Assembly (NCBI GenBank): GCA_964386355.1
Contig: CAYLQQ010000002.1
Coordinates: 45,374 to 109,373 of the forward strand
Length of the DNA: 64,000 nucleotides
DNA from: an uncultured Pseudomonadales bacterium
Lineage (GTDB): Bacteria > Patescibacteriota > Microgenomatia > UBA1400 > UBA1449
Reading direction: 5' to 3'
The notes under the pieces are model-generated. The model worked only from the letters and a program-made list of their open reading frames with translations. It made no database searches and was not told where the DNA came from. Position 1 is the stretch's first letter. Every line of letters begins with the position of its first letter. Positions 1,895 to 49,619 of the stretch are shown here, piece by piece. The position numbers were made by a program, and so were the translations under genes.

Positions 1895-4150
1895 TCAATA
1901 CTCCGGAAGGATATTATAAACAATTGTTCCCTCGTATAGATCAGATGGCTGAAGATAATTTACCTCTATTGCATAGCTTACATAAACCGTTTTTTCTTCA
2001 GCTTCTTGTGAGGACATGACGCTGTGTGAGATGGTGCTTAAAGGACCAAATTTTGCTGATGCATTTGACCACCCCTCCACTCTTGTATCAGATGTATTTA
2101 CGCCCACCCAGCCCGTATTAACGTTCCGTACTATGCCATTTGGTGCTGACCATATTTGTGGGGTTTGCCATGTGACAGAAGTTGCGGCAAATTCATCAAT
2201 ATTATTATCGGGGTAGTTCCCCTGCATTTGATTATACAGTTTGACGCTAACATCATAGCCATAGTCTGTATTGCTGTTTACCGTCAGCTTGTGAGATCCG
2301 AACTTCGGTACGCCAACACTGAGATTACCGAATGGAAGGGTAGTGTGGGTTGTGTTTATATTTGTTGTAATTCCGTTGTTTGAAGTTCCTGTAGGTACAC
2401 CTTCGATAGCAAAAGATAAGCTAGGAGTAGCTCGATGGTATATATCAAATGTTTGTCCATCACTTTGTACTGCTGAAAATGATTGTAGAAGCAAGAGATC
2501 TGAATATATGGTTTGCTCAATGGGGTATGTTGTATAGTCGCCTGCGGTTTTATTGATTCGGATGTAGTACAGAGGATGTCCACCATTTACGGTTGATTTA
2601 GTCCATTCATTCGGAACAGTATAGTACACATTTCCAGCACTTGTAAATGTGCTAGCTCCTGAGTTGCTATTAGATATTGCAAGGGTAGACCAGGTATCAC
2701 AAGGAGTATTGATATCCAAGTTTGAGCCGCAGTAAGACCAAACGGTTATAATACCAGAACCTGCACCTTTGGTTTGTAGTTGGGTATTTACACCGCTAAA
2801 CTGCGTGTGATTACCCAGGTAAAGGTAATCATTAGAATTGTCAAAAATCTGGTAGCTGCCCTGATCAAAACTGGCATTATCTTGACTATCAGCCAAGTAC
2901 TCATTTGTATCAGATGCCAAGCCACCTCTTGCCAGCTGTTTCCAGGTGTTTGAGCTGTCATAAAACCAAGCTTGTGAAAATGGTATTAAATTGGCATTAT
3001 AATCTGTATTGATCGTACGGTTTGTGCCTTCGATAGAGAAATTGGTTGGTACATTGCTTGTGCGCCAGTTTCTAAATTTGAATATAGGGGCATATCTTGA
3101 GTACGTTTCCCCATCCAAATTAAAAGAAATTATATTGTTTGAAGTTATTAGCGGGTAACTGTTTTGGGTTTGGTTAAAGTAGTCGCTTTCTCCTGTATTG
3201 GTAAACTCACTAGCAGAACTCCAGGCTGAACCTACAGATATTTTGCCAAATAAGCTGTCTGGTTGCCATAAATCTACAGCATAGCTTTTTGCTTCATTAC
3301 CGCTTAAGCTATTATCGTCAGTAATCTGAAAAACATAAGTATACGTATATGACTGTCCTCCAGAAAGACTATCATCAGTAATCAAACCGGCTGTAATTAC
3401 ATTTTCATCATTCTGGTATAAAAATTCATTATTTGGGAAAAAGCTGGGTACTTCTAGGGCATGTATCATGTAATCATTATCAGTACCGGTAGCTGGGTCA
3501 GAACCGGTGAGTGTTAGGCTAATCCCAGGAGCTGTGTATGTAATGTCAGCCACGCTCTGAATAGCTGCGCTTGGTGTGACGGTACCAGGAGCTGTATCAT
3601 GATCAGAAATAAAAGCATTTTCATCAAATAAGCTTGGTGCAAACGAAATGTAAGGTCCAGTCATTCCAGTACCAGCTGTGGATGAGCTAAAGGCACCATG
3701 CACCACAATCCTATCGGGATATATGGTATAGATTTGGGTATATTCTCCATCATTACTAGAACCGCAAGCTCCGTCTGTAAAATCATAGAGATCCCCGCTT
3801 ACTGAGATGACAATTCTTGTTTGAGTAGATTCCAAAAGGTGTATTGAAGCATTACTTTCACAAAACATGCTGTTTGTATCTCGTGTGACTAAACCCATTC
3901 CATATAACCGATTTGAAGTGCTACTAGTATCGATAATATTAGTGCTGCTTGAGCTGGGAATAACTAAGCTCGATAGTACTCCCCCGAGATCGCTCCTAAA
4001 CGTTGCTTTCCAGCTCGGGGTGGAATTACTGTTAACAACAATTGTGGTTGCAGTTATAGAGTCTACGCTCACTGATGCGGCATATACTTGTTGAGTGCAG
4101 GTCAGAAAGGTGAACGATATGAGAAATAGAAAGATACATGTTAATCGCAT
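1895..4150 (-). CDS. large secreted Ser/Thr/Asn-rich surface protein (751 aa) with a C-terminal domain shared with the downstream paralog
   Basis: Signal peptide MRLTCIFLFLISFTFLTCTQQVYA; very high S/T/N/G content. C-terminal ~140 aa (LPFGNLSVGVPKFGSHKLTVNSN...NTGWVGVNTSD...VYVSYAIEVNYLQPSDLYEGTIVYNILPEY) aligns with the C-terminus of the 369-aa protein at 4229-5338. Confidence 0.6.
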   Translation of the reverse strand: MRLTCIFLFLISFTFLTCTQQVYAASVSVDSITATTIVVNSNSTPSWKATFRSDLGGVLSSLVIPSSSSTNIIDTSSTSNRLYGMGLVTRDTNSMFCESNASIHLLESTQTRIVISVSGDLYDFTDGACGSSNDGEYTQIYTIYPDRIVVHGAFSSSTAGTGMTGPYISFAPSLFDENAFISDHDTAPGTVTPSAAIQSVADITYTAPGISLTLTGSDPATGTDNDYMIHALEVPSFFPNNEFLYQNDENVITAGLITDDSLSGGQSYTYTYVFQITDDNSLSGNEAKSYAVDLWQPDSLFGKISVGSAWSSASEFTNTGESDYFNQTQNSYPLITSNNIISFNLDGETYSRYAPIFKFRNWRTSNVPTNFSIEGTNRTINTDYNANLIPFSQAWFYDSSNTWKQLARGGLASDTNEYLADSQDNASFDQGSYQIFDNSNDYLYLGNHTQFSGVNTQLQTKGAGSGIITVWSYCGSNLDINTPCDTWSTLAISNSNSGASTFTSAGNVYYTVPNEWTKSTVNGGHPLYYIRINKTAGDYTTYPIEQTIYSDLLLLQSFSAVQSDGQTFDIYHRATPSLSFAIEGVPTGTSNNGITTNINTTHTTLPFGNLSVGVPKFGSHKLTVNSNTDYGYDVSVKLYNQMQGNYPDNNIDEFAATSVTWQTPQIWSAPNGIVRNVNTGWVGVNTSDTRVEGWSNASAKFGPLSTISHSVMSSQEAEEKTVYVSYAIEVNYLQPSDLYEGTIVYNILPEY

Positions 4151-4228
4151 ACAATGATGATAACAAAGCTAATCTAAAAAAACACCCTCTCGTTGAGAGG
4201 GTGTTTATCTAATCCGTTCTAGAAATGT

Positions 4229-5338
4229 TTAGTAGGTAGGCAAGGCGTTGTAGTACAGTATTCCTGTGTAGGTATCAGCTGGCTGATACACATTTACCTC
4301 TAATGCATAACTGACATAATCAGAAGCACCTCCGTTATCTGAGACTAAACTCTTCATAACAGTTGATTCAGTAAGATCCGAAACTCCTGCAAATTGTGCA
4401 GTATCGTCTCCAGTCCAGTTTTCTACTTCATTATCTGATGTGTTGTATCCTACCCATCCAGTGTTTGTGTTAGCAGCATTACCAGTAGGTTCAGCCCAAA
4501 CTGAGTGGCTTCCAACGTGTGGGAACGGGTCAATATTGTTGGCACTATATACTCCGGTCATGGGAGTAACCATCTTAATAGATACTGTATAACCAGCCTG
4601 TGTGTTTGTGGTCACGGTCAGTTTATGAGCAGCATATTTGGGTGTGCCTGCAGTCAAAGCTCCAAATGGCAGAGTATTATAAGAGGATGACACTGACGTT
4701 GTAACGCCATTATGTGCCTCATTATTTGTCACACCATCCACAACAAATGTGAAGGTAGCATCGACACGGGCAGTCACGCTAACTTGCTCAACAAAAGTGA
4801 TTGATGCAACAGCAGAATCTATAAGATTATTGGCATCAGTGCTTGCATCACTATATGTACCTACTTTTACGTAACATGTGCCGGTTGATGAGTTACCAAC
4901 TGCATTACATCCTGAAATAGCAGGATTGGTAATGTTATTGATTGTAAAAGAAAATAATTGGCCACCTACTCCGAATGTTTGACCAGTAGAGTTAAGTTGA
5001 AAATAGTTTGACCCAGCAGAGCCACCTAAAGACCAAGTACCATCTATTCCGACGGGACTTACTAAAGCGTTAGTTGAAACTCCTGCTAAACCTAGACCGG
5101 TTGGTATAGTACAAGCTCCTCCCCACGTAGGTTCCTTACAGTAGGTAACTGTTATATTTTTGTAAGTTCCTGCAGTACTTGTAGTAAATTCAAATACATG
5201 ACTAGTCGAAACAGCAGGGCGTGGATCTGATAGTTTTGCTTTAAAACTTCGTAAAATACTTGCAGCACCCACCGGACGGACTAATAAAAGTCCTAAAACG
5301 AGTGCCCCAAAAAATGATAATAAGCGGGCAGTTTTCAT
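4229..5338 (-). CDS. secreted protein (369 aa), paralog of the C-terminal domain of the upstream 751-aa protein
   Basis: Signal peptide MKTARLLSFFGALVLGLLLVRPVGA; C-terminal LPFGALTAGTPKYAAHKLTVTTN...NTGWVGYNTSD...YVSYALEVNVYQPADTYTGILYYNALPTY matches the neighbour block for block. Confidence 0.6.
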   Translation of the reverse strand: MKTARLLSFFGALVLGLLLVRPVGAASILRSFKAKLSDPRPAVSTSHVFEFTTSTAGTYKNITVTYCKEPTWGGACTIPTGLGLAGVSTNALVSPVGIDGTWSLGGSAGSNYFQLNSTGQTFGVGGQLFSFTINNITNPAISGCNAVGNSSTGTCYVKVGTYSDASTDANNLIDSAVASITFVEQVSVTARVDATFTFVVDGVTNNEAHNGVTTSVSSSYNTLPFGALTAGTPKYAAHKLTVTTNTQAGYTVSIKMVTPMTGVYSANNIDPFPHVGSHSVWAEPTGNAANTNTGWVGYNTSDNEVENWTGDDTAQFAGVSDLTESTVMKSLVSDNGGASDYVSYALEVNVYQPADTYTGILYYNALPTY

Positions 5339-5482
5339 ATGTTCACCTCCCCTCTCAAACGGTCTATAAAAGTATACCGTTTAAGCAAATTAATAGTATG
5401 TATCCATGTTAGTAAGTTTGATGAGCTGTTGTCAAGAGGGTAATTGAGGAGTTATCTATAGTCGCTGATAAGACCGAGCTAA

Positions 5483-7180
5483 ATGATAGAAGATATTAAA
5501 ATTGTATCAGGATCAAGTATCATTTATACTCAGAGCATGGTACTTTCTGACGATGCATTACTAGAACAGTCACTCCAGGATATTGGGATTAAATCTTACA
5601 AGGATCCCTTTGGTATGCCTGACACGTTTATATATGATCCCATAAAACCCATACAAGAAAAAGAAGGCAGCAAACGGCAAGTCCGCTTTACCCAACTGCT
5701 GAACTATTCGTTTCCAGAAGAGATAGAAGGTGGAGTAGCCGAGGTAGGGGAGGTGATATATATCGGCGATGGGGTGTGCCGGGTGGTCGGCTTATCGAAA
5801 GCTGAAATCGAAGATGTAATCAATGTTAAAACAGGTAAGGGTTGGGAAAAGGCACTCATCTTAGGTATAGAAGATACCCATATTGAGTCAGTTGTTCTTG
5901 GAGATTATTCAAATATCAAACAGGGCGACCAGGTAATCGCAACTAACTCAAGGTTAAAAGTGCCTGTTGGTAAAACTCTGTATGGCCGGGTAATTAGTCC
6001 TCTCGGAGTGCCTATAGATGGTAAGGGCAAGATTGAACCCGAAACGTACCGGGATGTGGAATTTCCAGCCCCATCAGTTATGGAGCGTGAGCCCATTTTT
6101 GAACCCCTAAAAACAGGTGAGATGGTTATAGATGCTACGATCCCTATCGGTTTAGGCCAGAGAGAATTGGTGATAGGAGACCGAAAAAGCGGGAAGAGCA
6201 GGTTTGCTATCGACATCATTTCAAACCAAAAAGGCAGAAACATGATCTGTGTATATGTTGGAGTTGGAATGCAGGCTGCTAAGGCAAAGGCTACGCTTGA
6301 GCTTTTGGAATCTAGAGAGGCCATGGATTACACCATCATGGTTGTATCTACTTCTGATGATCCTCCGTCACTACAGTACATCTCTCCATATGTAGGTACT
6401 GCCATAGCGGAGCATTTTATGTATGCAGGCAAAAATGTCTTGATTATTTATGATGATCTATCAAAACAAGCAAAAGCTTATCGGCAGGTTTCATTGCTGT
6501 TGAAACGCTCGCCAGGTCGAGATGCATATCCTGGTGATATCTTCTTTTTACATTCCAGGCTACTTGAACGCTCATCAAAAATGCATCGCAAGCTGGGAGG
6601 AGGTGCCATTACTGCCCTACCCATTGCCGAAACCCAGTCCGGTGATATATCTGATTACATCATCACCAATCTCATGTCTATTACAGATGGGCACATTTAT
6701 CTGGATGCAAATATGATGCATGAGGGAATTTTACCGGCAGTAAACTCACAAGCCTCAGTTTCCCGTATCGGGAGTAAGGTCCAGTCAAGTTTGCTAAAAA
6801 AGGTAGGAGAGCTTGCTTCGAGAGCTCTAGCCCGGTATGCAGAGTTAAAATCATTTGAAACGATTAACACCGAAGTTGCAGAGGAAACACTTCGGGATAT
6901 ACGGAGAGGCAAAAAAGTAAAGGAAATGTTAGCTCAAGTATCATCAGTAAATTATTCTACAGATGAGATAGTAGTTTTGCTCCATTTAGTAACTTCAGAT
7001 AAGCTGGAGATGATCGATCTTACAGACCTGTCTAAGTTTAAGCTGGAATTCCTGGAATACTATAGAAAAATTGTGACTCCTGAATTTAGAGGTAAATGTG
7101 AATCGTCAAAAGACCTCAAAGATATCGATGGGGAAGTGTCTGTTATGCTGGATAGGTTTTTAAAGCAACGTACAAGTTAG
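5483..7180 (+). CDS. atpA: F-type ATPase alpha subunit, with about 45-65 aa N-terminal extension
   Basis: P-loop GDRKSGKS, then DDLSKQAKAYRQVSLLLKRSPGRDAYPGDIFFLHSRLLERS, typical of alpha. The N-terminal beta-barrel core starts at EVGEVIYIGDGVCRVVGL, after extra N-terminal residues. Confidence 0.9.
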   Translation: MIEDIKIVSGSSIIYTQSMVLSDDALLEQSLQDIGIKSYKDPFGMPDTFIYDPIKPIQEKEGSKRQVRFTQLLNYSFPEEIEGGVAEVGEVIYIGDGVCRVVGLSKAEIEDVINVKTGKGWEKALILGIEDTHIESVVLGDYSNIKQGDQVIATNSRLKVPVGKTLYGRVISPLGVPIDGKGKIEPETYRDVEFPAPSVMEREPIFEPLKTGEMVIDATIPIGLGQRELVIGDRKSGKSRFAIDIISNQKGRNMICVYVGVGMQAAKAKATLELLESREAMDYTIMVVSTSDDPPSLQYISPYVGTAIAEHFMYAGKNVLIIYDDLSKQAKAYRQVSLLLKRSPGRDAYPGDIFFLHSRLLERSSKMHRKLGGGAITALPIAETQSGDISDYIITNLMSITDGHIYLDANMMHEGILPAVNSQASVSRIGSKVQSSLLKKVGELASRALARYAELKSFETINTEVAEETLRDIRRGKKVKEMLAQVSSVNYSTDEIVVLLHLVTSDKLEMIDLTDLSKFKLEFLEYYRKIVTPEFRGKCESSKDLKDIDGEVSVMLDRFLKQRTS

Positions 7181-19929: not shown

Positions 19930-21810
19930 TTAATTATTTTTTACAAATAATCCAAGTATAGGCTTTTCTGTACTTTTAAAATCCTCGCTTTTCATCTGCA
20001 CTGACTGCGTGTTTGATCCGGCATTGAAGTTGATCCAGGCTTGCTCAAGTAAGCCTTCATCAACATAGGTCGGAATATTAAATAAACTTCCAAATGGCGG
20101 GACGGAACCGGGTCGTAAGCCCGTGACCTTTAGTAACGTATCCTTATCTACTAGAGCAACATCTTTAAATCCAGTTGCTTGCTTAAATGCTTTTAGGTCA
20201 AGTTTAGATGCAGCTGAGACAACAACCATGATGGGTTTGCCATCAGCCATACAAACCAAGGCTTTAGCACCGGATTCTATGGAAGTTCCTCTAGCTTGTG
20301 CGGCCTCTTCGCTGGTAAACACAGGTTTATGCTCGAATTTCTTGTACTCAACTTTTTCATTATCTAAGTAATTGCAGATCTGCTCAAAGATCGATTTAGA
20401 AGTAGTCTGTTTCATAGAGCGGATCTGAATACCCAGCTCTTTCATCTGTTCTTCTGAGATGGGGCTGGGGGCATCCATCACTGCCGTTCTACCTGTTGAG
20501 GTCATCGGGAAGGCAATTGCCTCTTTAAGAGAGCTTTGGTTACTTAATAGCATGACAAACCTGTCTAAACCCAATGCTAGACCACCATGTGGCGGAGTTC
20601 CAAGACGAAACGCTTCAAGCATATGACCAACTGATGCTTCAATTTCTTCTTTAGAATATCCCATTATCTCAAACGTTTTATAAAGAGCGTTTGGGTTATG
20701 TGCCCGGATAGATCCTCCACCCATTTCGTATCCATTACAAACAAGGTCATATTGTGTTGTGAGAATATTCTCAATATTTTTCCCTTCCAGATGATCGGCA
20801 ATAAACTCATCTTTAGGCTGAGAAAACGGGTTGTGAGTGAATGTCCAGCCGCTTTTACCGTCACGCACCTCGGCCACGTCTTCTTTATTTACTTTCTTGA
20901 AAAATGGAAAGTCTACTACCCAAGCAAAAGCTAATACTCCATCCTTCTTTTCCTGTTCCGTTCGGATATCAAACCTGTCTGCACCATAGGTTTTAATAGC
21001 TTCATCATAAGTAATTATGGGAAATTTCCCTTCTCTTAGTTTACCTCCTACAGCCAAGATTGCTGCTTTGGTAGCCTGTTCAACCATTTCCATTACGTCC
21101 TCTCGTTTGACAAAGGACATCTCCAAATCAAGCTGGGTAAACTCAAATCCCCGGTCAGCCCGCAGATCCTCATCGCGGATGCAACGGGCAATCTGGAAAT
21201 AGCGTTCAAAGCCGGCTGTCATCAAAAGCTGTTTGTACTGCTGGGGTGATTGGGGCAAGGCATAGAACTTGCCTGGTTGGAAACGGGAAGGAACCACAAA
21301 ATCTCGGGCGCCTTCTTTGGTTGATTTGGTCAGCATGGGTGTCTCGATCTCGACAAAATCATTGGCAAATAAAGACTTGCGGAACTCTTCGATGAGCTTA
21401 CTTCGAAGCCTGATTGCTTTTTGCAGACGCTCACGTCGAAGGTCCAGGTATCTGTATTTTAACTTGAGCTCTTCATCAAGTTGAGTGCCATCAGTATCTA
21501 TGGGGAAGGGTAGTTCTTTGCATTCATTTAACAGGCTAAATGATGATGCTTGAATTTCGATTGCGCCGGTAGGAAGGTCTTTATTTACCATTTGCTCGGG
21601 ACGGTTATTAACTATACCGACTACTTCAACCACATCTTCCTGACTGAGTTTTCCCATTTTTGAGTCGCCCACTACCTGCACCTTGCCCGATCTATCGCGA
21701 AGCTCGATGAAAACTAATTTGCCGTGATCGCGGACCGTATCAACCCAACCTTGTAGCAAGATCTCCTCACCAATCTTTTTAAATGTTTCAAGTGCGAGTG
21801 TGCGTTTCAT
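19930..21810 (-). CDS. aspS: aspartyl-tRNA synthetase (no GAD insertion) with a C-terminal YbaK/ProX-type deacylase domain
   Basis: Class II motif 2 FQIARCIRDEDLRADRGFEFTQLDLEMSF, motif 3 GGLALGLDRFVMLL. The C-terminal ~155 aa (KALVCMADGKPIMVVVSAASKLDLKAFKQATGFKDVALVDKDTLLKVTGLRPGSVPPFG) aligns along its length with E. coli YbaK, including the conserved Lys and the GxxxPxG loop. Good SD AAAGGAGATAT before the ATG. Confidence 0.85.
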   Translation of the reverse strand: MKRTLALETFKKIGEEILLQGWVDTVRDHGKLVFIELRDRSGKVQVVGDSKMGKLSQEDVVEVVGIVNNRPEQMVNKDLPTGAIEIQASSFSLLNECKELPFPIDTDGTQLDEELKLKYRYLDLRRERLQKAIRLRSKLIEEFRKSLFANDFVEIETPMLTKSTKEGARDFVVPSRFQPGKFYALPQSPQQYKQLLMTAGFERYFQIARCIRDEDLRADRGFEFTQLDLEMSFVKREDVMEMVEQATKAAILAVGGKLREGKFPIITYDEAIKTYGADRFDIRTEQEKKDGVLAFAWVVDFPFFKKVNKEDVAEVRDGKSGWTFTHNPFSQPKDEFIADHLEGKNIENILTTQYDLVCNGYEMGGGSIRAHNPNALYKTFEIMGYSKEEIEASVGHMLEAFRLGTPPHGGLALGLDRFVMLLSNQSSLKEAIAFPMTSTGRTAVMDAPSPISEEQMKELGIQIRSMKQTTSKSIFEQICNYLDNEKVEYKKFEHKPVFTSEEAAQARGTSIESGAKALVCMADGKPIMVVVSAASKLDLKAFKQATGFKDVALVDKDTLLKVTGLRPGSVPPFGSLFNIPTYVDEGLLEQAWINFNAGSNTQSVQMKSEDFKSTEKPILGLFVKNN

Positions 21811-22005
21811 ATATCTCCTTTAATCATTAATAATTTGAACAATAGGTACAAAAAAACCGCCATAGTTCCCCATCAAAAAGGGCCAATCTGGCGGTACCAC
21901 CTAATTCTTTACTTATCCTGCTATTACGGGCTTACCCGTTCCGGTTATTACTCCGGACAGCTCGTCCTTTGTCAGAGGACTCAGACGCTTGTATGATTTA
22001 TTAGT
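21811..22005 (-). promoter_or_regulatory. T-box-like riboswitch leader of aspS (Asp specifier GAC)
   Basis: On the minus-strand RNA, a T-box sequence AAUUAGGUGGUACCGCC (plus strand 21890-21906) overlaps a terminator, CCGCCAGA...CUAUGGCGG followed by UUUUUUU (21851-21894). Upstream, the hairpin GUCCU-CUGACAA-AGGAC (21964-21980) carries GAC in its loop. A CGGGUAAGCCCG hairpin and an AGCAGG block are shared with the serS leader. Confidence 0.6.
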
Positions 22006-32995: not shown

Positions 32996-35290
32996 ATGTA
33001 TTGGGCAGATAAAATCGCAGATCAGATTGTAAAAAGTGGACAGCATAAACCATACTGGGTTGATGATATGAAAACCCCCTCTGGAAGGATTCATGTTGGG
33101 TCTTTACGGGGTGTGTTGATACATGATTTTGTCCACAAAGCTCTTATGCATCAAGGAAAATCCTCGACTTTTACGTATGTGTACAACGACATGGATCCAA
33201 TGGATGCATTACCGGGGTACTTAGATAAAGATGTTTATACTCAACATATGGGTAAGCCTCTGTATAAAATACCTGCACCTGAAGGTAACAAAAGTTTTGC
33301 TCAGTATTATGCCGATGAGTTTACTGGGGTTTTTAATCGCCTTGGGGCAACTCCCAAGATAGTGTTGTCGCATGAGCTGTATGAATCCGGCCAGATGAAT
33401 CCTCTTATACAGATAGCTTTAGATAATGTTGAAGAGTTAAAACACATTTATCGCGACATTGCTCATTACGAATTAGAAAAGAACTGGTATCCATTTCAGG
33501 TATTCTGTGAGCACTGCGGAAAAGAGGGTTCTACTACAACCTATCATTGGGATGGTGAGTATGTATATTACCGATGTGAAAAAAGTAAAGTAGAATGGGC
33601 TGTTGGCTGTGGTCATGAGGGCAAGGTTTCACCCTTTAACGGTACCGGTAAATTTCTTTGGAAAGTTGACTGGCCAGCTCACTGGAAGTTGATTGGTATT
33701 ACTATTGAAGGTGCTGGAAAGGATCATACTTCAGCCGGAGGTTCCCGTGATATGGCTCGGGAAATTGTGAAGCGTGTTTTCAAATACCCTGAGCCGTATG
33801 ACATCCCTTATGAGTGGTTGCTTATCCGTGGTGCCAAAATGTCTTCATCTAAAGGTATTGGAGCCTCTGCTAAAGAGTTTGCTGATCTTTTACCTCCGGA
33901 AGTGGGTAGGTTCTTGTTTGCCCGTACCCATTGCAATACAGTAATCGATTTTGATTTAGTTGGTAATACCATCCCTGATCTATTTGATGAATATGACAAA
34001 TGTGCACAGGCATATTTTAGTGGTAAACAAGATATGTATGCCCGGATTTATGAAGCTTCACAAGTGACTGATAAAAAATCAGATCCCGTATTTTTACCAA
34101 GATTTAGAGATGTAGCAATGTATAGCCAAATGCCCAGCGTTGATCTGATTGCAAAATTTGAACAGGTAAAAGGTTCTATCTTATCACCTGCAGAAAGGCA
34201 TATCCTGGAAGAGAGGGTAAATTACGCAAAGAAGTGGATTAAAAACTATGCTCCGTCTAATTTGAACTTTCAACTCTCAGATAACTCAACTCAATCTGTA
34301 ACACTTAATCAAAAACAGAAAGATTATTTAGGCTCTGTAATAGCGTTATTACAGAAAACATGGAATAAACCGGAAGATTTTCAATTTGAGCTGTTTGAAG
34401 AAACAAAACGACTTGGAATTTCAGCCAAGGAAGCTTTTGCTGCCATTTATCAGATACTGTTAGGTAAGAATTTTGGTCCTAAAGCAGCATGGTTTCTGTT
34501 GGAACAGGATAAAGAAGAGTTAATTAAGCGATTTAGCGAGGTGATAGGAGAAACTAATAAAAGTGATGTATCCATTTCCCAAACTTTTCCAACAATTACT
34601 GACTCAAAGATGATACAAATCAGTACAGCCATTGCACATCAATACCCTTCAGTGCATATCGGGTTTGCCATTATCAGAGGCATACAAGTGGTCAAAACCA
34701 ATGAACAGCTAGAACAAGAAAAAGAAACCCTATATGCAAAACTAAAAAGCATGACGACAGAAGAGATTGGCACTATGCCAGAGATCTTAAGTTATAGAAA
34801 AATGTACAAACAAATGGGGGTAGATTGGCATTCCAGAAGGCCTAGTCCAGAAGCTTTACTACGCCGTATCGTACAAGGCAAGGATTTGTATGCTGTAAAT
34901 ACTTGCGTTGATGCGTACAACCTGATTGTGATGAAATATAGAGTAAGTGTCGGGACATTTGACCTAAAAAATTTGGATTTTCCGGTAGAACTGTGTGTTG
35001 CGAAGGGTGGAGAAAAGATATTGCTTTTGGGCAATGATGAAGAAACCGAAATAAAAGCAGGTGAAGTGTATTATCAAGATCAAACTGGACCATACAATCT
35101 AGATTATAACTACAGAGACTCTCAGCGGGTGAGTGTGAATGAAGACACTGAAGACATTATGATCAACGTTGATGGCGTGTATGATGTTGGTAGACCACAT
35201 GTAGAAAGAGCACTGAAAGAGACTTTAGAGATTATCAAAAAGTACTGCGGTGGAGTGATAGAAGTCGCTGGTATTATTGAAGCGAAATAA
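32996..35290 (+). CDS. class I lysyl-tRNA synthetase with a C-terminal B3/4 (COG3382-like) domain
   Basis: HIGH-region TPSGRIHVGSLRG and KMSSSKG are the LysRS-I signature. Residues about 540-764 (PSPEALLRRIVQGKDLYAVNTCVDAYNLIVMKYRVSVGTFDL...GEVYYQD) fit the B3/4 tRNA-binding/editing-domain pattern known from PheRS beta. Confidence 0.75.
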   Translation: MYWADKIADQIVKSGQHKPYWVDDMKTPSGRIHVGSLRGVLIHDFVHKALMHQGKSSTFTYVYNDMDPMDALPGYLDKDVYTQHMGKPLYKIPAPEGNKSFAQYYADEFTGVFNRLGATPKIVLSHELYESGQMNPLIQIALDNVEELKHIYRDIAHYELEKNWYPFQVFCEHCGKEGSTTTYHWDGEYVYYRCEKSKVEWAVGCGHEGKVSPFNGTGKFLWKVDWPAHWKLIGITIEGAGKDHTSAGGSRDMAREIVKRVFKYPEPYDIPYEWLLIRGAKMSSSKGIGASAKEFADLLPPEVGRFLFARTHCNTVIDFDLVGNTIPDLFDEYDKCAQAYFSGKQDMYARIYEASQVTDKKSDPVFLPRFRDVAMYSQMPSVDLIAKFEQVKGSILSPAERHILEERVNYAKKWIKNYAPSNLNFQLSDNSTQSVTLNQKQKDYLGSVIALLQKTWNKPEDFQFELFEETKRLGISAKEAFAAIYQILLGKNFGPKAAWFLLEQDKEELIKRFSEVIGETNKSDVSISQTFPTITDSKMIQISTAIAHQYPSVHIGFAIIRGIQVVKTNEQLEQEKETLYAKLKSMTTEEIGTMPEILSYRKMYKQMGVDWHSRRPSPEALLRRIVQGKDLYAVNTCVDAYNLIVMKYRVSVGTFDLKNLDFPVELCVAKGGEKILLLGNDEETEIKAGEVYYQDQTGPYNLDYNYRDSQRVSVNEDTEDIMINVDGVYDVGRPHVERALKETLEIIKKYCGGVIEVAGIIEAK

Positions 35291-46345: not shown

Positions 46346-47008
46346 TTATTTGCATAGAACAAACATATTTGATAGGTTTCTGATCAGCTTTATATCAGAA
46401 AAATGTTTTTCAAGCTGTTTGATCAGCTTGGGAACCTTTTGTTTGTATTGGTCAAAGAAGAGATGATTAACCAGTAATTGACCTTGGGGATTAATAGTGT
46501 GTCTTATTTTATCTAGAAATTGTGTTTGATATAATTGCTTAGGTATCTCATGACCCTGGTACAGATCTACCAAGACTAGATCGTATTTCTGATTACAGTT
46601 TTGTATCCAGTGAAAACAGTTAGATTGAATTAGTTGTAAGGAAACAGAATTATTATTACGTACAGTTCTAAAATATTTTTCATAGATTACAATCATGACC
46701 GGATCTATTTCAATGCCTGTGATTTGGGCATTGGGGAATTTTTTAAATAGGAGTTGGGCAGCGGTACCACCGCCAAAGCCGAGGATCAATATTTGTAAGG
46801 GTACATCATGATGCACCCCTACTGATTTCAATGGTTTCTGCCATAGGTCTTTGATAATACTTCCGGATTGCAGCAGGCCTCCAGCATAAATTTTCCGCTG
46901 CCCAAATTGTTCGACAACCATAACCTCCCCGTTATACTGAGAATTGTATGTTTCTATTGTGTTTGGGAATAAAAATTTAGATGCTTTACTTAGAACCATA
47001 GTACTCAT
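46346..47008 (-). CDS. spermidine-synthase-like SAM-dependent methyltransferase-fold protein
   Basis: ILILGFGGGTAAQLL, then ITGIEIDPVMI and VLVDLYQGHEIP, resembles the PABS family. Confidence 0.45.
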   Translation of the reverse strand: MSTMVLSKASKFLFPNTIETYNSQYNGEVMVVEQFGQRKIYAGGLLQSGSIIKDLWQKPLKSVGVHHDVPLQILILGFGGGTAAQLLFKKFPNAQITGIEIDPVMIVIYEKYFRTVRNNNSVSLQLIQSNCFHWIQNCNQKYDLVLVDLYQGHEIPKQLYQTQFLDKIRHTINPQGQLLVNHLFFDQYKQKVPKLIKQLEKHFSDIKLIRNLSNMFVLCK

Positions 47009-47433: not shown

Positions 47434-47745
47434 TCATGCTGAACTGGTTTCAGCATCCCCATAAAGATTCATTAGATTATTAAAATTTGGATTGACTGAT
47501 TTAATTAGGTTTATTTTCCATTGCCTATGCCACTTTTTTAGCTGCTTTTCTCTGGCAATAGCTTGAGTAATATTTTCAAATACTTCAAAATAGAACAGTT
47601 TATCCACGTTATATTTGCTTGTGAAAGAATGAGTAATTTTATGCTCGTGTTGCCATTCTCTTTTTATTAAATTACTGGTTACACCAATATAGAAAACGGT
47701 GTTGTGCTTATTGGTAAGAATATATATGTAACCACTCATAGACAT
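47434..47745 (-). CDS. small GIY-YIG nuclease-family protein (COG2827-like)
   Basis: GYIYILTNKHNTVFYIGVTSNLIKREWQH is a GIY-YIG core. The long ORF to 47871 would overlap serS by 90 nt; the internal ATG at 47745 is preferred. Confidence 0.65.
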   Translation of the reverse strand: MSMSGYIYILTNKHNTVFYIGVTSNLIKREWQHEHKITHSFTSKYNVDKLFYFEVFENITQAIAREKQLKKWHRQWKINLIKSVNPNFNNLMNLYGDAETSSA

Positions 47746-47779
47746 AAGGGGATCCTGAAACAAGTTCAGGATGACACAT

Positions 47780-49048
47780 TTATCTAATGTTCTCTTTACC
47801 CATGTACGATTGTAGTACTTTTGGTACATATACCGATCCATCTGCTTGTTGGAAATTTTCCAAAACTGCAATTAGAATCCTCGGGCTGGCAATAGCAGTA
47901 TTATTGAGCATGTGGACAAATTTTATTTGGCCATCCTTGGCTTGGTACTTAACATTTGCTCGTCTTGATTGGTACTCACCCATCATTGAGCAAGACATGG
48001 TTTCACCATACTCCTGCCTTCCGGGCATCCAAGTTTCGATATCATACTTTTTGACTTGAGGCTCACCCATATCGCCAGTACACATAAGTAACACGTGATA
48101 TGGGAGACCTAATTCCTGAAGAATTTCTTCTGAATATGATCTTAGATTCTCATGCCATTTCTTTGATTCTTCCCAGTCATTTTTACATATAATAACCTGT
48201 TCAACCTTAGCAAATTCATGAATGCGGTAAATTCCTTTTGTATCTTTGCCGTAACTACCGATCTCCCGCCTGAAGCACTGGCTATATCCTGCATACAACT
48301 TTGGCAGTTCTTTTTCTGGTAAAGTTTCATCCATGTGGTATGACACAAGCGGAACTTCGGCTGTACCTGCCAGGTAGCGGGCATCCTGATTGTCTTTATC
48401 ATCATATGTTTTGTAGACATCTTCTTTACCCCAAGGGAAATGGGCAGTGTTGTAAAACGGACGTTCGAGTAAAACAGTGGGAGGAATTACCGGAGTGAAG
48501 CCTTTTTCTATTAATTTTTTTAGTGCAAATTGCAGAATTGCCAAGTGAAGTAGGGCACCATCTCCCTTTAGGTAATAACCTCGAAATCCTGCAACCTTTA
48601 CACCCCTGTCCATGTCAAGTATTCCTAGGTCTAAACCCAGTTGGATATGGTCTTTAGGCTGGAAATCGAACTTGGTAGGCTCCCCCCACTTTGAGATCTC
48701 AATGTTACCGCTGCTGTCTTTACCAATGGGGACTTCTGGAGCAGGGACGTTTGGAATAGTGAACATCAATCTATCATATTCCTGTTCAACCTCTCTCAGT
48801 TGCGGTTCAAGGGCTGCTAATTGGTCTTTGAGTGCTTTGCCCTGGTCAATTATCTCCTGACTTGGTTTGCCAAACACCCCTTTCATCAGGTCATTGCGCT
48901 GCTTGCGAATTTCTTCAGTTTGCTTAATTAAGCTGCGTCGTTTCTCATCAGCTGCTAATAGTTCGTCTATGGTATCTTTGACACCTTTACTTGCAGCAGC
49001 CTGCTTGACCAAGTCTTTGTTGTCACGGATGAATTGGATATCTAGCAT
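47780..49048 (-). CDS. serS: seryl-tRNA synthetase
   Basis: N-terminal coiled coil; motif 2 FRREIGSYGKDTKGIYRIHEF; motif 3 region; 422 aa. Confidence 0.9.
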   Translation of the reverse strand: MLDIQFIRDNKDLVKQAAASKGVKDTIDELLAADEKRRSLIKQTEEIRKQRNDLMKGVFGKPSQEIIDQGKALKDQLAALEPQLREVEQEYDRLMFTIPNVPAPEVPIGKDSSGNIEISKWGEPTKFDFQPKDHIQLGLDLGILDMDRGVKVAGFRGYYLKGDGALLHLAILQFALKKLIEKGFTPVIPPTVLLERPFYNTAHFPWGKEDVYKTYDDKDNQDARYLAGTAEVPLVSYHMDETLPEKELPKLYAGYSQCFRREIGSYGKDTKGIYRIHEFAKVEQVIICKNDWEESKKWHENLRSYSEEILQELGLPYHVLLMCTGDMGEPQVKKYDIETWMPGRQEYGETMSCSMMGEYQSRRANVKYQAKDGQIKFVHMLNNTAIASPRILIAVLENFQQADGSVYVPKVLQSYMGKENIR

Positions 49049-49300
49049 ATTTGATATTTAGAATTAAGAACAATGAATTTAGCAAATAAATTCAATTATG
49101 TTCTATTTTTCATTTTATGTGCTCTTAATTACCAAAAACCGCCACTAACCCTATACGTAAAAGGGCCAATATGGCGGTACCACCTTTATTTTGTCGCTAA
49201 AAGCATCGCTTTTAACTTCCTCAACCTGCTGTAACGGGCTTACCCGGGCTTGCATTTCCTCAAGCCAACTCGACAGTTGGAAGCTGTCTCAAATGTTGTT
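49049..49300 (-). promoter_or_regulatory. T-box-like riboswitch leader of serS (Ser specifier UCC)
   Basis: On the minus-strand RNA, a T-box sequence AAUAAAGGUGGUACCGCC (plus strand 49171-49190) overlaps a terminator, CCGCCAU...GUGGCGG followed by UUUUU (49134-49179). The specifier-like hairpin GACAG-CUUCCAA-CUGUC (49272-49288) and the CGGGUAAGCCCG and AGCAGG blocks are shared with the aspS leader. Confidence 0.6.
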
Positions 49301-49316
49301 ATATATAGATACTATA

Positions 49317-49619
49317 TCACCTATACCATCTTAATTCCAACGCTGTGATATCAACAGCTGGACATCCACAGGTAGCGTATTTTTCCTGATCGCCAAACGG
49401 ATCGATTGTAATGATACCCATCGTTGGGGTGTTTTTTGAATTTTCTCTAAGCTCTTGTTGTGCAAGATATGCTTTAAAATCCTCAGGTAAGCAAGTAGTG
49501 TCCATTCTGGTTAATTGTGAAGCTTTTTGATGATATTCTTGTTGCTCAAACAATGCCCATAAACAAATATTGCCATTTGTGACTGCTAATCTACGAGAAC
49601 ATTTTTGTTCAACTGACAT
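49317..49619 (-). CDS. small Cys-containing hypothetical protein (100 aa)
   Basis: ATG ORF; a CGCP motif near the C-terminus. Confidence 0.35.
   Translation of the reverse strand: MSVEQKCSRRLAVTNGNICLWALFEQQEYHQKASQLTRMDTTCLPEDFKAYLAQQELRENSKNTPTMGIITIDPFGDQEKYATCGCPAVDITALELRWYR

Follow-up and report, generated by a model that had tools for sequence, protein, structure and literature searches.

The stretch under study, referred to here as the window, comprises 64,000 nucleotides (nt) of contig CAYLQQ010000002.1 from an assembly labelled as an uncultured Pseudomonadales bacterium, and the element considered is the RNA leader of serS, the gene of a seryl-tRNA synthetase (SerRS), on the minus strand. 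The gene (47780..49048, ATG at 49048) encodes 422 amino acids (aa) with the Pfam domains Seryl_tRNA_N and tRNA-synt_2b, and the closest named homologues of the protein are from Candidatus Beckwithbacteria, within the Patescibacteria (candidate phyla radiation, CPR). An earlier note on this DNA had proposed a T-box-like leader at 49049-49300, with a T-box sequence overlapping a terminator that ends in U5. All of its motifs were located, on the minus strand, in an RNA running from 49302 to 49134; the proposed span does hold the leader, but it also includes the spacer of about 85 nt that separates the terminator from the ATG. We consider it very probable that this leader is a T-box riboswitch which would control serS by transcription attenuation, and that it belongs to a compact subclass widespread in Patescibacteria.

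At its 5' end the leader carries a kink-turn (K-turn, GA motif), the 5' half of which (49289..49298; C-stem CAAC, bulge AUUU, then GA) was aligned to the K-turn positions of the Rfam T-box, and the 3' half of which (49266..49271; GA, then GUUG) was identified from the Rfam alignment and a pair count in 20 leaders. Between the two halves stands an ultrashort Stem I (49272..49288). It is the hairpin GACAG/CUGUC pointed out earlier (49288..49284 / 49276..49272), with the 7-nt loop CUUCCAA (49283..49277), and is supported by the fold and by compensatory changes; the loop displays the Ser codon UCC (49279..49281) followed by A49278, and UCC-A is kept across serS leaders. Stem II (49248..49265) is reduced to a helix of 5 base pairs (bp), GCUUG/CAAGC, and a purine-rich loop of 8 nt, AGGAAAUG; it too shows compensatory changes, and it has neither a long helix nor the canonical two-strand S-turn. 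Within the region of Stem IIA/B (49225..49246), defined by the Rfam alignment, there are a Stem IIA hairpin CGGG-UAAG-CCCG, an F-box-like CCGUUA and an AGCAGG block; the exact 12-mer CGGGUAAGCCCG occupies 49246..49235 and is followed by UUAC and by AGCAGG at 49230..49225. The minimum-free-energy fold adds a candidate Stem III of 9 bp, GUUAAAAGC-GAU-GCUUUUAGC (49196..49216).

The T-box sequence AAUAAAGGUGGUACCGCC, with an exact core, lies at 49190..49173. According to the Rfam alignment the antiterminator (49160..49187) is made of helix A1 (AAAGG/CCUUU), the 7-nt bulge UGGUACC (49182..49176) and helix A2 (GCCA/UGGC), and folding predicts an intrinsic terminator (49134..49178) whose hairpin (49178..49138) leads into U5 at 49138..49134. 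On the 5' side of the leader, a promoter-like TTGGAA with an 18-nt spacer and a TG-extended TATAGT (49311..49340, minus strand; recognised by consensus match alone) would, if used, place the transcript start near 49304, a few bases 5' of the K-turn. The interval between the terminator and the start of serS contains an imperfect inverted repeat, AAUUAAGAGC...GUUCUUAAUU (49066..49129, minus strand), the fold of which is no better than that of shuffled sequences (z -1.4).

A paralogous leader (21850..21993, minus strand), found with the covariance model R1 described below, precedes aspS (19930..21810, minus strand), which encodes a protein of 626 aa with an aspartyl-tRNA synthetase (AspRS) core and, by domain match, a C-terminal YbaK-like editing domain. 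The layout said to be common to the two leaders was confirmed. The aspS leader has a K-turn, Stem I GUCCU-CUGACAA-AGGAC at 21980..21964 with the codon GAC at 21973..21971, Stem II UCCGG-AGUAAUAA-CCGGA, the same 12-mer at 21938..21927, AGCAGG, the same T-box with its bulge at 21899..21893, and a terminator that runs into U7 (21856..21850). It has no Stem III, the distance from AGCAGG being 14 nt to the A1 strand AGG and 17 nt to the bulge UGG; by a survey of linker lengths, the Stem III candidate of the serS leader is missing from most relatives as well. The T-box/terminator halves of the serS (49134..49187) and aspS (21850..21902) leaders are identical at 45/50 positions and are thus more alike than that half of the serS leader and its counterparts in the serS leaders of related genomes (38/48 and 40/47). 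The 5' decoding halves are closer to their orthologues. This suggests a recent duplication or homogenisation within the genome. The AspRS itself is unusual in its build: it has an anticodon-binding domain and a class II core that apparently lacks the bacterial GAD insertion; its editing domain, of the YbaK/ProX type, covers about residues 494-612, and this build is apparently common to several relatives of 611-639 aa.

At the gathering threshold, Rfam returned tRNA-Glu as the sole match over the whole 64-kb window, and no T-box. In a permissive search of 601 nt the T-box family RF00230 was matched at 49302..49158 (minus strand) with 50.2 bits and an E-value of 4.7e-10. This alignment covers the K-turn, Stem II, Stem IIA/F-box and the antiterminator and deletes 76 model positions of Stem I, and the score is only about 50 bits because these positions are missing. 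The other permissive matches (sau-5949, MIR530, snoRNAs; E 0.17-9) were dismissed. None of 17 CPR leaders tested reached the Rfam gathering threshold, and none of 18 related loci had a T-box match at that threshold. Model R1, a covariance model made from 20 related leaders including both in the window, found exactly two sites in the 64 kb, the aspS leader with 115.9 bits and the serS leader with 98.1 bits, the next best site having 14 bits; the matches from the covariance-model search that had been suggested go beyond chance. A third exact copy of GGTGGTACCGC, at 46771..46761, is a chance match inside a methyltransferase open reading frame (ORF), where it codes for G-G-G-T-A.

Compared feature by feature with RF00230, the window leaders have a specifier codon followed by A (UCC-A before serS, GAC-A before aspS), the bulge and its helices (AAAGG-UGGUACC-GCCA...UGGC-CCUUU) and, at the sequence level, a K-turn in which UGA...GA flank Stem I next to a paired C-stem, conserved in 20 leaders. 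The IIA hairpin and CCGUUA align to the family, the pseudoknot region having been held fixed by the search pattern. A long Stem I with an internal-loop specifier and an elbow platform is absent, Stem I being 5 bp with a 7-nt loop. Of the three defining features of the ultrashort Stem I class the leaders share the layout of Stem I, and neither translational control nor the link to ileS and tRNA-Ile. Judged by its sequence, the serS leader is a T-box which has the core features of the family (specifier, bulge, switch and K-turn) and fails on the long Stem I and on the Rfam threshold.

The leader type was followed in one genome per species of GTDB by means of the shared core GGGTAAGCCCGTNNNAGCAGG (Stem IIA/F-box), which gave 114 stretches, and in JGI metagenomes, where the same core gave at least 120 further stretches. 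There are hence at least about 230 leaders of this type, mostly in genomes and metagenomes of Patescibacteria, and the named lineages include Beckwith-, Pace-, Woese-, Gottesman-, Moran-, Magasanik- and Buchananbacteria, WWE3 and Saccharibacteria. Many of the metagenome-assembled genomes (MAGs) in the family bear doubtful labels such as 'uncultured Pseudomonadales', and their synthetases cluster with named CPR sequences. Unrelated genomes account for a few chance matches to the core. Three further matches are T-boxes of the classical kind with a long Stem I, two of them from Firmicutes. One such long-Stem I T-box, upstream of valS in a Clostridia (Firmicutes) MAG (L033), has the exact CPR Stem IIA/F-box core and scores below the Rfam gathering score.

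In the genome set the downstream ORFs encode AspRS (33), SerRS (25), IleRS (27) and ValRS (9). Two serS orthologues of related loci are informative with respect to the hairpin: L002 (71% protein identity) has Stem I GGCAG-CUUCCAA-CUGCC and Stem II GAAGAG-AGGAAAUG-CUCUUC, and L004 (69%) has Stem I GGGAG-AAUCCAA-CUCCU, so that both stems are altered by compensation with UCC-A and the Stem II loop AGGAAAUG kept. The distance from AGCAGG to UGG is 22 nt or less in 96/167 family members (among the matches listed), which leaves no room for a Stem III. An ORF of 36 aa called over the serS leader of L002 (L002:3961-4071) is almost certainly a miscall over the riboswitch. The locus L031 encodes, at 2621-6649 (minus strand), an IleRS of 1343 aa in which a histidine-phosphatase (phosphoglycerate-mutase-like) domain is inserted at about residues 513-680.

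The agreement between loop codon and gene was examined in about 160 leaders with a classified downstream synthetase, using three hairpin choices made blind to the codon and, as control, label shuffling. With a K-turn-anchored rule the cognate codon was present in 52/92 loops, compared to 21.1 ± 3.6 after shuffling (maximum 38 in 20,000), and with Stem I placed by model R1 in 50/61 loops, compared to 21.1 ± 3.2 (maximum 35 in 20,000). An independent metagenome set gave 37/69 against 14.9 ± 2.9 (maximum 28), among the matches listed. The first hairpin-picking rules were noisy, with Stem I misplaced in about one third of the leaders, and were retained as a codon-blind test; the covariance model, for its part, misplaces Stem I where insertions separate Stems I and II. 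The misses, when inspected by eye, were mostly misplaced hairpins, and the cognate codon was found in the true Stem I of nearly all of them. An apparent exception, L063, was set aside in this way, since its Stem I lies further upstream (GAUGGC-AUAACAA-GCCGUU) and carries the Asn codon AAC. Leaders whose triplet does not suit the downstream gene, which would speak against specifier-codon logic, were looked for in the whole set, and that logic, proposed earlier from UCC before SerRS and GAC before AspRS, was not refuted: the codon tracks the gene across the family.

Asp loops have GAC followed by A or G, Ser loops UCC-A or AGC-A/C, Ile loops AUC and Val loops GUC-A or GUG-A, and the metagenome set adds TrpRS with UGG and ProRS with CCC-A (among the matches listed). 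In the UCC-type serS leaders (CUUCCAA, AAUCCAA, CCUCCAA, CAUUCCA, CUUUCCA) the sole triplet kept is UCC-A, and further serS leaders carry AGC instead of UCC. The codon is followed by A in 45/52 loops. The frame CU-NNN-AA put forward earlier does occur in both window leaders, and two bases, codon, two bases is the commonest arrangement in the family, but with 25/52 loops it is not universal; the constant feature of the loop is the codon and the purine that follows, rather than CU...AA.

In a minority of aspS leaders (L057/L210, L063/L165/L201, L066, L073, L089/L146, L150, L180) the Stem I loop shows AAC, a codon for Asn. AAC before aspS makes sense where the AspRS is non-discriminating, and this suggests that aspS is tuned there to the charging of tRNA-Asn. 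In Clostridium acetobutylicum, aspS and tRNA-dependent amidation are under Asn-specific T-box control, and some of the CPR leaders with AAC resemble that case; the aspS leader of the window has GAC.

The helices were assessed by a pair count over the K-turn C-stem, Stem I, Stem II and Stem IIA of 20 compact leaders, both window leaders included; the antiterminator region was left out, the MAFFT alignment being out of register there. Paired bases filled 93.8% of the cells, compared to 79.3 ± 1.1 after shuffling and 20-42% with the partners slid. Ten pairs had changed on both sides, among them 4/5 of Stem I and 5/5 of Stem II, which is in line with the conservation of the Stem I hairpin that the earlier note had asked about in relatives. 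The K-turn C-stem was paired in 93%, with a compensatory change in one pair, and Stem IIA was invariant because the search pattern had fixed it.

The 3' part of the leader would allow a transcriptional switch. The terminator hairpin absorbs the T-box on its 3' side, namely residues ACC of the bulge together with helix A2, and nucleotides 49178..49160 are common to terminator and antiterminator, which makes the two mutually exclusive. The terminator folds with -21.5 kcal/mol (z -2.8; 3/200 shuffles equally stable) and the antiterminator alone with only -5.8 kcal/mol, as would be expected if the switch needs tRNA to hold the antiterminator. The minimum-free-energy fold of the whole leader contains Stem I, Stem II, IIA, the Stem III candidate and the terminator together.

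The same hairpin could also be read as a sequestrator of the ribosome-binding site, as in the translational T-boxes of the actinobacterial ultrashort ileS class, and ultrashort Stem I has in fact been described solely for translational T-boxes (PMC7583486; bioRxiv 10.1101/2023.02.28.530422). For the window we regard this as unlikely. The hairpins run into U5 (serS) or U7 (aspS), the start codons follow about 85 and 39 nt past the U tracts, and the ribosome-binding site AAGGAG of aspS is outside the hairpin; these gaps and the free ribosome-binding site argue for transcriptional over translational control. At least 72/167 family members have a hairpin and U tract absorbing the T-box (strict automatic test, among the matches listed), which also points away from a translational mechanism. 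The valS leaders L012 and L029 are a different matter. Here AGGAGG forms the terminator's 3' strand and the U tract leads directly into the ATG, so one hairpin could block both transcription and ribosome binding, and translational or dual control is plausible in such relatives because the hairpin covers AGGAGG right before the ATG.

Evidence that the 3' end of the tRNA is also read comes from the bulge. The ratio UGGC:UGGU is 59:31 in Ser and Asp leaders and 9:52 in Ile and Val leaders (Fisher p 3e-10 with no correction for phylogeny, among the matches listed). Among tRNA genes in related loci, five tRNA-Ser end in GCCA (G73) and the single tRNA-Val has A73. The variation of N in UGGN thus fits the known T-box rule that N follows the expected discriminator of the tRNA. 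A T-box-derived leader could instead respond to another signal, for instance to a protein that binds the K-turn or the Stem II loop, or to a tRNA of which the anticodon alone is recognised and the 3' end goes unread. This would agree with the lack of the elbow platform and canonical S-turn, and frequently of Stem III, since these parts are regarded as necessary to gain affinity and to reject charged tRNA (PMC7583486). We find such a leader scarcely credible, since the bulge and both helices A1 and A2 are preserved whole and N changes along with the amino-acid class, a sign that the tRNA 3' end continues to be read.

Several points weigh against the interpretation of the serS leader as a transcriptional T-box of a compact subclass. 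Its 50.2 bits fall short of the 93 that RF00230 requires as gathering score, and for the aspS leader Rfam gives no match even at E 0.01. Stem I alone is weak, with -5.3 kcal/mol for serS and -2.0 for aspS (folded segment minus the 5'-most stem G). At the serS locus L006, which encodes a 67% identical protein, there is no leader. Both window leaders have UGGU, so that a G-U wobble would be needed with the expected G73, and there is no gene for tRNA-Ser(GGA) or tRNA-Asp in the 64-kb window. The family was gathered with one fixed 18-base core, which makes it a biased sample in which IIA/B covariation is not assessable, and the shuffling and Fisher statistics are uncorrected for sequence relatedness. 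Finally, transcriptional T-boxes are said to need the long Stem I platform, and Stem III is described as indispensable (PMC7583486).

Some of the same observations, namely the Rfam score below the threshold, the lack of several canonical domains, the thermodynamically weak Stem I hairpins and the one orthologous locus without a leader, would be natural for a decayed or non-functional T-box remnant, or for a plain terminator of the upstream gene with a loop codon that matches by chance. Such an explanation is very unlikely and hard to maintain, as Stems I and II show covariation, codon and gene agree over six amino-acid classes in two independent collections, the N of UGGN follows the amino-acid class, and the core is conserved across distant CPR lineages.

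Ultrashort (US) Stem I ileS T-boxes of Actinobacteria were reportedly treated by Sherwood, Grundy and Henkin in 2015. This ultrashort Stem I class is defined by a short hairpin that bears the specifier in its terminal loop, and is known from actinobacterial ileS (PMC7583486 section 6.2; bioRxiv 10.1101/2023.02.28.530422), with structures from M. tuberculosis, N. farcinica and M. smegmatis (bioRxiv 10.1101/2023.02.28.530422; PMC7583486; PMC10651847). The earlier note was accordingly right that the codon sits in a terminal loop, and not in taking this to be unusual. Like the US ileS T-boxes, the leaders described here have no distal elbow platform, Stem II as well as Stem IIA/B comes after Stem I, and the bulge would read the 3' end of the tRNA. 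The US ileS T-boxes regulate translation by a sequestrator, are described as controlling ileS alone, and have a long Stem II with canonical S-turn as well as a Stem III, whereas the window leaders have intrinsic terminators, precede serS and aspS, possess a Stem II of 5 bp and a loop of 8 nt and, in the case of aspS, lack Stem III; their relatives precede ileS, valS, trpS, proS and metabolic genes.

The leaders also share much with canonical transcriptional T-boxes (RF00230, e.g. B. subtilis tyrS), such as the switch between terminator and antiterminator, a bulge UGGN, the K-turn, a purine next to the codon on its 3' side, the Stem IIA hairpin, the F-box-like sequence and the place before aminoacyl-tRNA synthetase genes. 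Canonical T-boxes, unlike the window leaders, have a long Stem I, an internal-loop specifier and a distal double T-loop platform (PMC7583486 section 6.2). The glyQS leaders are likewise naturally reduced transcriptional T-boxes; they drop Stem II and IIA/B and keep the long Stem I with elbow platform (PMC7583486), and the CPR leaders do the reverse. In current reviews the long Stem I platform is held to be required by transcriptional T-boxes for fast tRNA capture, and a short Stem I is linked to the slower, translational control of Actinobacteria. The published mechanism is not simply transferable to the window leaders because the elbow platform, the S-turn and often Stem III are missing, and the mechanism of these leaders may differ from that of published T-boxes.

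In TBDB, the short-Stem I (class II) model was run solely in Actinobacteria and on Rfam-detected class I hits with truncated Stem I (PMC7778990). A literature search that left most subscription journals uncovered turned up no paper in which T-boxes are connected with Patescibacteria, CPR, Saccharibacteria or metagenome-assembled genomes, and this is absence of evidence only. Going by the sequences, what is new relative to the ultrashort class is the coupling to a terminator, the range of at least six amino-acid classes and of metabolic genes, the occurrence in Patescibacteria, the reduced Stem II and the frequent lack of Stem III.

In the mechanism we propose, transcription would begin near 49304 and the nascent leader would fold into the K-turn, a 5-bp Stem I showing UCC in its 7-nt end loop, the small Stem II and Stem IIA/F-box. 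The anticodon GGA of tRNA-Ser would pair with UCC. If this tRNA is uncharged, its 3' end (G)CCA would pair with UGGU of the bulge and stabilise the weak antiterminator, leading to read-through into serS; if it is charged, the stronger terminator hairpin with U5 would form, and transcription would stop about 85 nt short of the serS ATG. The aspS leader would follow the same scheme with GAC and tRNA-Asp. In this scheme we infer the binding of tRNA, the sensing of its charging, the switching itself and an affinity reached without the tRNA-elbow platform. By analogy, CU-NNN-AA on a 5-bp stem would have the geometry of an anticodon arm, with the same stem length and loop frame, and complexes of complementary anticodon loops are unusually stable, as known from classical work on tRNA-tRNA dimers. 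The purine string of the S-turn may be replaced by the Stem II loops, which are rich in purines (AGGAAAUG, RGUANNAA). The wider proposition, for which we see about even chances, is that Patescibacteria carry an undescribed, radiation-wide class of miniature transcriptional T-boxes of about 115-170 nt, without elbow platform or canonical S-turn and often without Stem III, which would read tRNA mainly by contact of the anticodon loop with the Stem I loop.

The same leader type stands before genes other than synthetases (L162; L124, L227, L230, L048; L157, L119; L128; L129, L167, L070). One is an archaeal-type phosphoenolpyruvate (PEP) carboxylase gene, with the leader at L162:2014-2103 and the codon GAC-A, and among the others are genes of PspA-like histidine phosphatases, of SerB-like HAD phosphatases (both kinds with UCC or UCA) and of a NUDIX hydrolase (UCC). 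A gene of a CsaA-like tRNA-binding protein also has a leader, the specifier of which could not be read. With regard to the remaining genes of the window, an ORF with a GIY-YIG nuclease domain (47434..47871, minus strand) has about 90 nt in common with the 3' end of serS and is absent from that position in the orthologous L002 and L004. A third synthetase of the window, a class I LysRS (tRNA-synt_1f; 32996..35290, plus strand), is fused to a C-terminal B3/4 domain, which is the fold of the PheRS beta-subunit editing domain; no T-box leader was found at this gene in the search of the 64-kb window with model R1.

T-boxes are the textbook case of RNA reading RNA, and the combination of the shortest Stem I with an intrinsic terminator, a shrunken Stem II and often no Stem III provides a direct test of the rules given in reviews. 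If the wider proposition of a radiation-wide class is true, the accepted requirement of a long Stem I for co-transcriptional T-boxes would not be general, and no smaller natural RNA would be known that reads the identity of a tRNA as well as its charging. The leaders also offer a very small scaffold for engineered tRNA sensors. Standard annotation, given the Rfam threshold and the scope of TBDB class II, would miss such leaders. The specifier may further serve as a free functional hint for adjacent genes, pointing to Ser for the PspA- and SerB-like phosphatases and to Asp for the PEP carboxylase. For the organisms themselves, these leaders would mean that CPR bacteria, which are thought to be poor in regulation, couple the expression of their synthetases to the charging of tRNA.

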